Shown here piece by piece: positions 315 through 2,107 of a DNA stretch of 4,119 nucleotides; the first letter of the stretch is position 1, and every line of letters starts with the position of its first letter. The translations under genes and the position numbers were made by a program. The notes beneath the pieces were generated by a model. It ran no database searches, was not told where the DNA came from, and saw only the letters and a list, made by a program, of their open reading frames with translations. Location of the stretch: the IMG/VR virus record IMGVR_UViG_2660238209_000014; one strand, given 5' to 3'. Source of the DNA: a virus. Lineage: Duplodnaviria; Heunggongvirae; Uroviricota; Caudoviricetes.

Positions 315-689
315 TTAATGATTAATTGATATTTTGTTGTTTGATTCAACTTTCCCATCGGATGTGTGATGCTTTAAATCACAGGAATTAATACTGCTCG
401 CTGTAAAATGATTTTCAAGGGGAGCTATTCGAATCCCTTTCTTTTTCATTAACAAGCCAAATCCTTTATTAATGATGTCCATTAATTCCAGGAAGTATTT
501 TTCATGTAAATCCTGGTTATCAGAGAGCTGCTTCTCTTCGTACAGACCGATAAAGGCACGACGCACGTTACCGGATATAGTATCGATGGTTTCTTTTTCT
601 ACGGTACTCAGGTCAAGAGTCGCCAGTTGAGAGCGAACCACATTCGATGCCATTTCCTGGAATGGTACTGGTAAATCTTTAAATTCCAT
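315..689 (-). CDS. hypothetical protein, second gene of the leftward two-gene cassette (124 aa from ATG at 689; 128 aa if the upstream ATG at 701 is used); no family recognised
   Basis: ORF track 315..701 minus. The ATG at 689-687 is preceded by GAGG with a 6-nt spacer (minus strand TGAGGTTGACGATGG); the ATG at 701 has no Shine-Dalgarno but overlaps the upstream stop (TGATG). Stop TAA at 317-315. The 3' half (about 321-540) is about 34% G+C by hand count, clearly lower than its neighbours. The C-terminal tail is low-complexity (Ser/Asn/His/Lys-rich). Confidence 0.55.
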   Translation of the reverse strand: MEFKDLPVPFQEMASNVVRSQLATLDLSTVEKETIDTISGNVRRAFIGLYEEKQLSDNQDLHEKYFLELMDIINKGFGLLMKKKGIRIAPLENHFTASSINSCDLKHHTSDGKVESNNKISINH

Positions 690-700
690 CGTCAACCTCA

Positions 701-940
701 TCAGTCAGTGTTTCTGGTTAACCAGCGACGCGCGCCAGCTTCAGTTTTAAACGTTTTGCTTCTGGTATACGTCATCGCGGTAAACGTGCCGTCCTGGTTG
801 GGAAACACGCCGTACACCAGAGATTCGTTGTTGCCAAGATCGATAGTATCCATGCTGACCTCATTTCCCCTTAACGCTGGGGTAGCGGAACTAAAAACCT
901 GCTGCGCTGTTATACAAAGTGTTCCCGCCGTCATGTTCAT
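701..940 (-). CDS. small hypothetical protein, first gene of the leftward cassette (79 aa longest form; alternative starts at 934 and 853, the latter giving 50 aa)
   Basis: ORF track 701..940 minus. GAGG lies 3 nt before the ATG at 940 and 9 nt before the ATG at 934. The internal ATG at 853 has the best ribosome-binding site (GAGG, 5-nt spacer). Stop TGA at 703-701 overlaps the next ATG. It sits just downstream (in the transcription direction) of an operator-like palindrome. No family recognised; a competing plus-strand ORF 708..983 has a GTG start and no RBS. Confidence 0.45.
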   Translation of the reverse strand: MNMTAGTLCITAQQVFSSATPALRGNEVSMDTIDLGNNESLVYGVFPNQDGTFTAMTYTRSKTFKTEAGARRWLTRNTD

Positions 941-1034
941 ACGCCTCGGGCTGGCTACTTACCCCCTGACCACTGCTTGGTAACTCGAAGTATTGCCCGG
1001 CGTTCTGTGGGGCGGGGTGGGTTGGTATGTTGTT

Positions 1035-1054
1035 AAGGTAACAAGAGTTACCTT
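1035..1054. promoter_or_regulatory. operator-like palindrome AAGGTAAC-AAGA-GTTACCTT (putative OL-type repressor binding site)
   Basis: Perfect 8-bp inverted arms with a 4-bp spacer. The core GTAAC-N4-GTTAC is the same as the two palindromes between the repressor and cro genes (1801-1814, 1849-1862). This 14-bp core pattern occurs exactly three times in the window, all at regulatory positions. Weaker half-site-like sequences lie nearby (980-993). Confidence 0.55.
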
Positions 1055-1096
1055 TTGGGTTAATACAATGTTGCAAAAGGTACATTTGAGGGCATG

Positions 1097-1120
1097 AAAA
1101 ACCCGCAATGAATGCGGGTT
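1097..1120 (-). terminator. Rho-independent terminator just downstream of the repressor gene (minus-strand orientation)
   Basis: 8-bp GC-rich stem (1100-1107 AACCCGCA pairing with 1113-1120 TGCGGGTT) and a 5-nt loop, followed on the minus-strand RNA by a U-run (A-run 1097-1101 on the plus strand). It begins 5 nt after the repressor stop at 1126-1128. No U-tract follows it on the plus strand, so it looks unidirectional. Confidence 0.65.
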
Positions 1121-1125
1121 CTGAC

Positions 1126-1800
1126 TCAGTCTAAGTATTGATGTATTTGTGAAACTTTACCTTTAATGGTGTAACCACCATTCAGTTCGATGGGTTTGTA
1201 AAGCGGATTCAGTGACAACAGATAGATGTTTGGTCCGTCAATCGCAACTTTTTTTAGTGTTACGTTTGGCGTTCCTTCCAATTGGATTAAGATTATTTTT
1301 CCCACCAGTTCTCTAATGTTACTTGAGCATGGTGTGATCAGCACGGTAGATCCGTCGGGGATGGTTGGGAGGCCGTTAGAGTTTGTCATCGCATCTCCCT
1401 CAACATGCAATAAAAAAGAGTTTTCAGCGGTTTTTGTCATGACATCAACCCAATTCTTAATACCAGGAATCTCGGTTACTGGACAACTCATATCCCAATA
1501 ACCAGCCTGTTCCCACGTTAAAACGGGCAACCGGGCGATGTTGTCACTAATGTAAGGGTACTGATTCAGACGCAGATCATCGGCTTTATCGTGACCGTCC
1601 TTTCCATAAAGAATCCATTCAGGAGATTTGGAAAGCAATTTTGACAGTAGATACAAATTCTCACCGTCAGGTTTTGAAGAGCCATTTTCCCATTTTGTTA
1701 CGGATACACGAGATATGCCGATTGCTTTCGCAACCTGCTGTTGGGTTAATCCAACGTCTTTTCGACGATTCCGAATACGTTCGCTGATAGTGTTTTTCAT
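1126..1800 (-). CDS. cI: CI/C2-type prophage repressor: N-terminal XRE-family HTH plus C-terminal LexA-like (S24) domain, with Ala at the catalytic Ser position
   Basis: ORF track gives 1126..1842 (238 aa). I favour the ATG at 1800 (224 aa): that N-terminus (MKNTISERIRNRRK...) matches the start of P22 C2/434-type repressors as I recall them, and it places both operator palindromes and a consensus TTGACA in the intergenic region. HTH: LTQQQVAKAIGISRVSVTKWENG. Ala-Gly cleavage-site motif (WEQAGYW) present. The S24 motif reads VEGDAMT where LexA, lambda CI, UmuD and P22 C2 have G-D/N-S-M. Lys of the dyad is retained (VTLKKV). Tail LNPLYKPIELNGGYTIKGKV parallels lambda CI [20 protein letters not shown]. 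Confidence 0.9.
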   Translation of the reverse strand: MKNTISERIRNRRKDVGLTQQQVAKAIGISRVSVTKWENGSSKPDGENLYLLSKLLSKSPEWILYGKDGHDKADDLRLNQYPYISDNIARLPVLTWEQAGYWDMSCPVTEIPGIKNWVDVMTKTAENSFLLHVEGDAMTNSNGLPTIPDGSTVLITPCSSNIRELVGKIILIQLEGTPNVTLKKVAIDGPNIYLLSLNPLYKPIELNGGYTIKGKVSQIHQYLD

Positions 1801-1891
1801 GTAACCAATGTTACTACCAAGTGATGTTGCTATGGTTGACATTGTTATGTAACTATTGTTACCCTTCTACTCGAAATAACAGGAGAGTTTT
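1798..1891. promoter_or_regulatory. OR-type divergent operator/promoter region between the repressor and cro genes
   Basis: Two near-identical sites, ATGTAACCAATGTTAC (1799-1814) and ATGTAACTATTGTTAC (1847-1862), each a GTAAC-N4-GTTAC palindrome. Consensus -35 TTGACA at 1836-1841 faces rightward, with a weak -10 candidate TACCCT at 1860-1865 (18-bp spacer) overlapping the second operator. AGGAG at 1881-1885 lies 6 nt before the cro ATG. No Shine-Dalgarno precedes either candidate repressor ATG, so the repressor mRNA may be leaderless as for lambda cI from PRM. The leftward promoter hexamers could not be assigned confidently. Confidence 0.6.
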
Positions 1892-2107
1892 ATGTTCAAA
1901 GATGATGTTCTGCGCTATTTCAAAAAAAAGCGACTAGTAGCTGAGGCTCTTGGAATTTCACATGTGGCTGTTGTGCGGTGGAAAGCAGTTATTCCCAAAC
2001 TTCGCGCAATGGAACTGGATGAAATTACTAACGGTGAATTGAAATACAACCCAGAACTTTACAAGAAGCAGGATAGCACCTCAAACGAAGGAAAGAATGA
2101 TTCATGA
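1892..2107 (+). CDS. cro: Cro-like small HTH regulator (YdaS-like)
   Basis: 71-aa ORF with a good RBS (AGGAG, 6-nt spacer). HTH segment RLVAEALGISHVAVVRWK. Divergent from the repressor gene across the operator region. Its stop TGA (2105-2107) overlaps the next ATG (2104-2106) as ATGA. Confidence 0.8.
   Translation: MFKDDVLRYFKKKRLVAEALGISHVAVVRWKAVIPKLRAMELDEITNGELKYNPELYKKQDSTSNEGKNDS

Follow-up and report, generated by a model that had tools for sequence, protein, structure and literature searches.

The window analysed here, a stretch of 4,119 nucleotides, comes from a lambdoid Escherichia coli prophage of the Rac/Qin/CP-933 kind, of which it forms the region for immunity and early replication. 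Judging from its sequence and from comparison with related loci, the site at positions 1038-1051 is very probably OL1, the principal operator on the left side of a cryptic lambdoid prophage (Qin/Rac/CP-933-like), at which bound repressor would silence an operon of the dicBF type. Most likely, we are dealing with an ordinary lambdoid left operator/promoter of standard design, belonging to an uncharacterised but common immunity type. The mechanism itself is textbook.

In the mechanism that we propose, a repressor dimer (HTH plus S24) would recognise GTAAC-N4-GTTAC as it would at the strong OR sites, and the same probably holds for Cro. OL1 would lie in the 17-bp spacer of a leftward sigma-70 promoter, pL, and would supply its TGn element and the first three bases of its -10 hexamer. 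On the minus strand, pL is predicted to consist of a -35 hexamer at 1063-1058 and of TG-T-TACCTT at 1043-1035, with a start near 1028. Repressor on OL1 would block RNA polymerase and so keep the operon silent, from a leader of about 170 nt through ydfA onward, and a weak site at 1070-1083, 32 bp upstream, may aid this by cooperative binding. Four things set out below were observed directly: the sequence features, where the module ends, the promoter geometry that is conserved, and which bases are kept among alleles. The features concerned are as follows.

315-701, minus strand: gene for a 128-aa protein (phrog_6937), second leftward gene
701-856, minus strand: ydfA-type gene, DUF1391 (Pfam PF07151, 1.5e-27), first gene of the leftward operon
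857-1029, minus strand: untranslated leader of the pL transcript, common to all immunity types; contains 980-993
1035-1054: OL1, strong operator palindrome; conserved core 1038-1051 (GTAACAAGAGTTAC), with the outer arm bases outside the conserved site
1035-1043, minus strand: predicted extended -10 of pL, TG-T-TACCTT, formed by the right half of OL1
1058-1063, minus strand: predicted -35 hexamer of pL, TTAACC here; 21 of 24 related loci have TTGACT
1070-1083: OL2 candidate, weak; minus strand GTACC-TTTT-GCAAC, 7 of 10 core positions
1096-1120, minus strand: cI intrinsic terminator, AACCCGCA-TTCAT-TGCGGGTT plus a T-run; -15.6 kcal/mol, z = -3.9
1126-1800, minus strand: repressor, HTH_3 (DicA/P22 C2-like) plus Peptidase_S24 (LexA/cI-type)
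1801-1814: OR3-like strong operator (GTAACCAATGTTAC), adjoining the repressor start and overlapping a putative PRM -10, TAACAT at 1813-1808
1826-1839: OR2 candidate, weak; GTTGC-TATG-GTTGA, rank 11 of 4102 in the matrix scan
1849-1862: OR1-like strong operator (GTAACTATTGTTAC), inside PR
1892-2107, plus strand: Cro, P22_Cro family

The palindrome and its position

The perfect inverted repeat AAGGTAAC-AAGA-GTTACCTT has its arms at 1035-1042 and 1047-1054, around a centre of 4 bp. A preliminary description of this DNA had noted that the repeat shares the core of the two OR sites, and this is indeed so: the core, GTAAC-N4-GTTAC, has exactly three matches in the window, one on the left and two on the OR side. 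The similarity is confined to this 5+5 core, and the three outer bases of each arm differ from those of the OR sites. It had also been stated that such a pattern should occur by chance far less than once in 4 kb. Our own arithmetic gives an expectation of about 0.004 (4119/4^10), and none of 200 dinucleotide-preserving shuffles of the window contained any match.

The motif scan was extended to L001, a 98%-identical prophage with its flanks (28.3 kb), in which the exact core occurred only at the same three places; a single match with one mismatch elsewhere is within chance. We also built a weight matrix from the two OR sites alone and scored 4102 positions of the window with it, and the site at 1036-1053 ranked third.

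The earlier placement of the palindrome between the repressor terminator and the cassette agrees with the gene order. On the minus strand, the stop codon of the repressor (1126) is followed by the terminator (1120-1096), the palindrome, the leader of about 170 nt and the ydfA-type genes, so that the palindrome lies downstream of the terminator and upstream of these genes. The cI terminator insulates pL from cI transcription.

An inverted repeat in this position could also act as an RNA hairpin, that is, as a second or bidirectional terminator or as a stability element after the repressor gene. The 8-bp stem has a calculated energy of -8.8 kcal/mol on the plus strand and -9.9 kcal/mol on the minus strand, and a TTTT follows the repeat on the plus strand. 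However, the minus strand, which is the one transcribed from cI, has no U-run, a strong terminator is already present 40 nt before the repeat, and there is no rightward transcription into it. Moreover, three alleles (L010, L011 and L012) have lost outer stem pairs with no compensating change, and yet keep the 5+5 core identical to OR. Across alleles, the outer arm bases are not conserved on the left side and show no compensation on the right side; such uncompensated loss argues against selection for an RNA hairpin. A hairpin would also leave the two OR copies of the core unexplained, as well as the OR palindromes that heteroimmune phages carry in the same slot. We therefore regard this explanation as highly improbable, and prefer the operator reading. 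An intrinsic terminator in particular was rejected, given that only 3 of the 8 pairs are G-C, that the minus strand lacks a U-run and that a terminator scan did not call the palindrome.

Module boundary and the conserved promoter slot

BLAST comparison with three heteroimmune phages (L002, L003 and L005), which have ydfA and the replication genes in common with the window, showed that the homology on the left side ends at window positions 1029, 1019 and 1017, respectively. Homology with heteroimmune phages resumes only at 2048-2099, inside cro/ydaT. The break thus lies 6-18 bp from the palindrome. Given that it falls between the ydfA side and the palindrome, the palindrome travels with the terminator-cI-OR-cro segment and not with ydfA. 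Inheritance of OL together with the immunity module is a defining trait of lambdoid immunity regions. The immunity module was found in 702 E. coli genomes, all with a coverage of at least 80%, and in varied contexts.

Another reading is a chance palindrome, or a functionless recombination scar at a mosaic junction, for which the closeness of the mosaic boundary (6-18 bp) speaks. We consider the probability of this to be close to negligible. The shuffles yielded no match, the core is invariant in divergent alleles whose flanks vary, and other immunity types show the same pattern. For a chance palindrome, the shuffle statistics amount to an effective refutation.

To return to the operator reading, we compared the corresponding slot in other immunity types by anchoring the loci on the common leader. 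About 11 immunity types share one promoter slot, which consists of a -35 hexamer (TTGACN or TTTACN), a spacer of 16-18 bp, a -10 hexamer (TAnnnT), a few nucleotides and then the leader. The -10 hexamer of pL aligns with TAGATT, TAAACT and TAAATT of the heteroimmune relatives and with TAATCT of Qin dicBp. Most of the roughly 11 types carry their own OR-type palindrome in the pL slot, and the slot palindromes that match the cognate OR in heteroimmune relatives include CTAAATACTTTTAG, GTTTT-N6-AAAAC, TGAGAAAACT(C/A)AA and TAGGC-N3-GCCTA. These relatives also have a terminator of their own at the place of the cI terminator.

We then compared own and other types more generally, using 12 representatives from 85 loci with enough upstream sequence. 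From their pL regions, 52 perfect 5+5 palindrome patterns were taken, and the 1.65 kb upstream of each (repressor and OR) was used as its own DNA. The 52 patterns gave 16 exact recurrences in their own upstream DNA and a single recurrence in the upstream DNA of the other types (about 17 kb for each), and at least one exact recurrence was found for 9 of the 12 representatives. A comparison of ungapped 16-mers separated own from other types only poorly: the mean was 14.3 for own and 12.5 for cross comparisons, and own was best in 7 of 12 rows. This is due to the central bases, in which the operators differ, and the arms-only test was used instead.

One of the slots belongs to CP-933P. Locus L047 is of the CP-933P immunity type, with upstream genes that encode PaaA2 and a ParE toxin. 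Both of the published primers for cloning PL933P match L047 exactly and define a 118-bp fragment, which ends directly before the common leader (ACCAACCCACCCC...). Either the cI-like PaaR2 or the Cro-like YdaS represses PL933P about 100-fold; the element had been noticed because it resembles the OR operators, and three operators, OL1-OL3, have been reported (PMC8630535). Promoter activity and repression are thus established experimentally for two homologous slots, those of CP-933P PL933P and Qin dicBp, and for the window allele we infer repressor binding, occlusion and promoter activity. All of the comparative tests agree with the suggestion that the cassette is under repressor control, as the equivalent of OL/pL.

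The leader was examined in 102 loci, which contain 79 distinct sequences. Its first approximately 100 nt (930-1029) are almost invariant, and more conserved than the genes behind it, even where ydfA has been replaced. Degenerate half-sites had been proposed at 980-993, and these are not operators: the sequence there, GAGTTACC, is invariant in 102 of 102 loci and in every immunity type, because it lies within the transcribed leader common to all of them, and so it is not an operator of the GTAAC/GTTAC-type repressor. An Rfam search over the window (E<=1) gave only two matches at chance level and none in the leader, and the 12 phage records that contain the leader carry no annotation of it. RNAalifold predicted stems in 56 distinct leaders, with no compensatory changes; this is therefore evidence neither for nor against an RNA structure. 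A small hairpin, CGCU-ACCCC-AGCG at about 868-880, precedes the ribosome-binding site of ydfA, and one of its pairs occurs in U-A, U-G and C-G variants.

For the ydfA-type gene at 701-856, the RefSeq annotation of L001 and of L009 agrees. Starts at 940 or 934 were rejected, given that the nucleotides are conserved there, the frames differ and the length differences are not multiples of three. In the window allele, ydfB and ydfC are absent, and the phrog_6937 reading frame abuts ydfA with a stop/start overlap at 701. In L001 and L009, ydfB-ydfC lies between the two (window 690-722 versus 12593-13016 of L001), and L011 and L013 are without ydfA and have a gene of the ECs_2282 family on the opposite strand. 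Searches of Pfam, NCBIfam and PADLOC with the 128-aa phrog_6937 protein gave no match.

The best full-length relative (98% identity, 94% coverage) is a prophage adjoining ompW, with a left arm of ydfA-ydfB-ydfC-...-dicB-exonuclease-xis-int. In L008, the immunity module is 100% identical over window positions 1030-1895, and DicF (Rfam, 76.7 bits) and dicB lie further downstream in the operon. The module is likewise 100% identical over 1030-1895 in O111 STEC genomes such as E2855, and a 301-bp sub-segment of it is 100% identical in strain 11128. Homology to L001 and L008, which are otherwise collinear with the window, is missing at about 1-68. In these relatives DicF comes just past that point (2429-2480 in L008), and the window may start at a rearrangement or mosaic junction. 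To the right of cro, the window encodes a YdaT/CII-like protein, an O-like replication protein and a DUF977/Ren-like protein. Inside the gene for the O-like protein, at 2885-2965, there are four to five tandem TTGACCCGTCAA-like repeats, which are presumably origin iterons, as in lambda ori.

The predicted promoter, its alleles and the repressor

The extended -10 of pL can be read directly from the sequence, with TG at 1043-1042 and the hexamer at 1040-1035, and the start is predicted at about 1029-1027 on the minus strand. The spacer is 17 bp long, and the operator lies in its promoter-proximal part, where OL1 takes up positions 7-17 of the spacer together with the first three -10 bases. The TGn element is formed by the last central base and the G of the right arm of the operator. 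The hexamers are weak: TACCTT agrees with the consensus at 3 of 6 positions, and TTAACC of the window at 4 of 6. A consensus scan of the window for promoters and terminators missed pL, PR and the cI terminator alike, its thresholds being set too high for hexamers as weak as these.

We examined the constraint on these elements in 24 loci that encode the GTAAC/GTTAC-type repressor. The core is invariant in all 24, and the -10 hexamer is TACCTT in 23 and TACATT in one. By contrast with this core, the six bases between it and the -35 hexamer vary (TGAAAG, CGAAAG, CTAATG, CAACGA, TCAATG, CAAAAG, CAGATG), and the central four bases of the operator are TCTT or TTCT. The left flank of the palindrome differs among alleles (AAGG, ATGG, CGAG), and its right flank, CTT, belongs to the -10 hexamer and is fixed for that reason. 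Even in L010, a divergent allele with only 77.7% identity over the segment from OL to the 3' part of cI, the core and the -10 hexamer are still kept. As far as the sequences tell, the functional unit is the 14-bp core. No covariation between repressor and operator was seen within the GTAAC/GTTAC type, in which the core never varies among the 24 loci. A search of species-representative genomes for repressor relatives gave only two distant HTH matches, with 34-41% identity over about 60 residues, which were unusable for covariation.

The earlier remark that only one strong site is visible here holds insofar as OL1 is the single strong site, but a weak second candidate is present at 1070-1083. 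This OL2 candidate lies 32 bp from OL1 from centre to centre (about three helical turns), and its end is 6 bp upstream of the -35 hexamer. It ranked fourth of 4102 in the matrix scan, which is not significant by itself. Its promoter-distal half, ATGTA(A/C)C, is kept across alleles, and in L010 this half is a perfect GTAAC. Both this site and the OR2 candidate at 1826-1839, whose centre is 25 bp and 23 bp from those of the two strong OR sites, are suggestive only as operators. The OL2 candidate is also connected with the right half of OL1 by a perfect 9-nt inverted repeat, TACCTTTTG at 1049-1057 and CAAAAGGTA at 1074-1082. Only the TTAACC (O111) allele has this repeat in its perfect form, and in the TTGACT alleles it is shorter.

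The common form of pL in this immunity type is TTGACT, CGAAAGGTAACTCTTGT, TACCTT, and the window departs from it in its -35 hexamer. TTAACC occurs in the window, in L008 and in L095. The nearest allele, L015, differs from the window only at two bases of the -35 hexamer, and both changes in the window are away from the consensus. The TTAACC allele was found in 44 genomes, essentially all of which are O111 STEC, and it is a clonal, lineage-specific change. This suggests that pL of the window allele may be weakened by a degraded -35.

A stronger version of this idea is that the site is genuinely bound by repressor or Cro but that the promoter of the O111 allele is dead, so that the site would be an OL-OR looping partner or a relic. 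The two unfavourable -35 bases and their restriction to the 44 O111-type genomes point in this direction. With OR about 760-810 bp away, a loop would help repression as well as autoregulation at OR, and the repressors of lambda and CP-933P are known to octamerise and loop (PMC8630535). However, the TGn extended -10, the core, the -10 hexamer and the leader are all intact in the window allele. Furthermore, the allele is clonal, and its two changes may reflect drift without functional loss. Extended -10 sigma-70 promoters in general rely less on the -35 hexamer. We therefore consider a dead promoter unlikely.

The same arrangement of operator and promoter recurs on the right. PR has a -35 hexamer TTGACA (1836-1841), an 18-bp spacer and TG-T-TACCCT (hexamer at 1860-1865), and the operator at 1849-1862 is placed relative to it as OL1 is to pL. 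The operator at 1801-1814 is invariant in 10 aligned alleles. Cro probably binds the same operators as the repressor, which is also the case in lambda and CP-933P.

The repressor probably starts at the ATG at 1800 and is 224 aa long, whereas the RefSeq annotation places the start at 1842 (238 aa). A start at 1842 would put the 1801-1814 operator inside the gene and the start codon inside the PR -35. In an alignment, the N-terminus obtained with the start at 1800 is within one residue of that of P22 C2, and phage homologues also fit this start. Together with the -10-like TAACAT at 1813-1808, it would give an almost leaderless repressor mRNA. The lambda cI mRNA is almost leaderless too.

In the S24 domain of the repressor, a Lys (LKKV) and a QAG cleavage site are present. 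An Ala (VEGDAMT; GCG at 1390-1392, minus strand) aligns with Ser149 of lambda cI (VEGNSMT, 3bdn). A 41-mer around this Ala codon has an exact match in 681 of the 702 E. coli genomes bearing the module. The Ser is kept in the rare alleles L012 and L033; L010 also keeps the Ser, and has QVG (Val-Gly) in place of QAG. Work on LexA S119A and on lambda cI indicates that loss of the catalytic Ser should abolish self-cleavage. Given the Ala at this position, the common repressor is probably not self-cleaving and thus not SOS-cleavable. Repressors that do not respond to SOS are known in cryptic prophages, as in the cases of DicA and PaaR2 (PMC10448788, PMC8630535), and the Ala-for-Ser repressor is another route to this known outcome.

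Given that about 97% of the E. coli carriers lack the catalytic Ser and that the O111 -35 is degraded, a more tentative proposal is that of a switch domesticated by the host. In addition, the start of the leader, which follows the promoter slot in every immunity type, could be a cis-acting RNA element of a new kind. We regard this combined proposal as possible rather than probable. If it is true, OL/pL would hold the dicBF-type operon, which encodes the cell-division inhibitor DicB and the sRNA DicF, in an SOS-blind manner, and would not serve SOS induction of a phage. The only routes of release would then be Cro-type bistability or an antirepressor, in line with a proposal made for DicA. The nearly invariant stretch of about 100 nt in the leader could, for example, act in antitermination without N protein, or as a processing signal.

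Whichever of these applies, the operator sequence and the likely promoter layout are now defined for a common immunity type, which 13% of complete E. coli genomes carry, the ST131, O26 and O111 lineages among them. The result predicts which prophages are homoimmune and how the toxic dicB/DicF operon stays silent in carrier strains. It also provides an annotation rule for Rac/Qin/CP-933-like prophages, namely one slot before one leader, with about 11 types that each have a different operator. In a tblastn search against phage genomes, the repressor had no relative with more than 43% identity, and there is therefore no characterised phage with GTAAC/GTTAC immunity among them. A full-text literature search with six operator variants (three sites, both strands) returned no matching paper, and topic searches on this immunity type found nothing.

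Relation to known systems

One close parallel is dicBp of the Qin prophage in E. coli K-12, which drives the same kind of operon, with ydfA as its first gene; DicF and dicB are found downstream in L008. In Qin, the last approximately 35 nt of the leader are as in the window and are followed by ydfA, and the leader of the window is the long form of about 170 nt. Qin dicBp consists of TTGACC, a spacer of 17 bp and TAATCT, with a DicA Oc-like TGTTAGTCATGGCTAA in the spacer and -10 hexamer. Deletion of dicA derepresses dicBp 22-fold (PMC10448788). The HTH domain of the repressor is 57% identical to that of Qin DicA, and Cro is 39% identical to DicC. The recognition helix of the repressor reads SRVSVTKW, and that of DicA SHVSVSQW. 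The DicA operator Oc is TTAGT-N4-ACTAA (PMC3441716); its 5+4+5 geometry is the same as that of OL1, but sequence and specificity differ, the core being GTAAC/GTTAC here. DicA is a 135-aa protein with an HTH only, whereas the repressor of the window has 224 aa and a C-terminal S24 domain. It scores 79.5 bits against the NCBIfam DicA model, below the cutoff of 101, and Cro is also below the DicC cutoff. On the grounds of length and S24 domain, HMM score and core sequence, we rejected the identification of the repressor as DicA with an Oc-type operator.

CP-933P of E. coli O157:H7 EDL933 has the identical slot and the identical leader, and its right arm is also of the YdaS/YdaT type. Its operators, of which there are three, contain repeats of the GTTTAGTAA type, compared with one strong site and one weak candidate here. 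It further differs in that PaaR2 has no peptidase domain and that paaA2-parE2 lies between the repressor and PL.

The logic of OL/PL in lambda is the same: operators that match OR lie beyond cI, overlap the leftward early promoter, which in the window is a predicted one, and are inherited as a member of the immunity region, by which heteroimmunity is defined. The lambda repressor also has the HTH plus S24 architecture (3bdn). On the other hand, lambda has three strong 17-bp sites of unrelated sequence, as against one strong and one weak site here, and only a terminator separates cI from OL in the window, without the rexAB of lambda. A lambda-type pL with N and nutL was rejected; the first genes are ydfA and the phrog_6937 gene, and the leader contains no recognisable nutL and no Rfam match.

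The HTH of the repressor is also similar to that of P22 C2 (1adr and 2r1j, E about 1e-12), and the Cro of the window belongs to the P22_Cro family. The operators of P22 are 18-bp pseudo-palindromes with TTAAG/CTTAA arms and four central base pairs that are not contacted. OL1 has the same arm-N4-arm design, although the arm sequence and the residues of the recognition helix differ. Lambda, P22 and CP-933P have three strong left sites each, and the immunity type described here has one.
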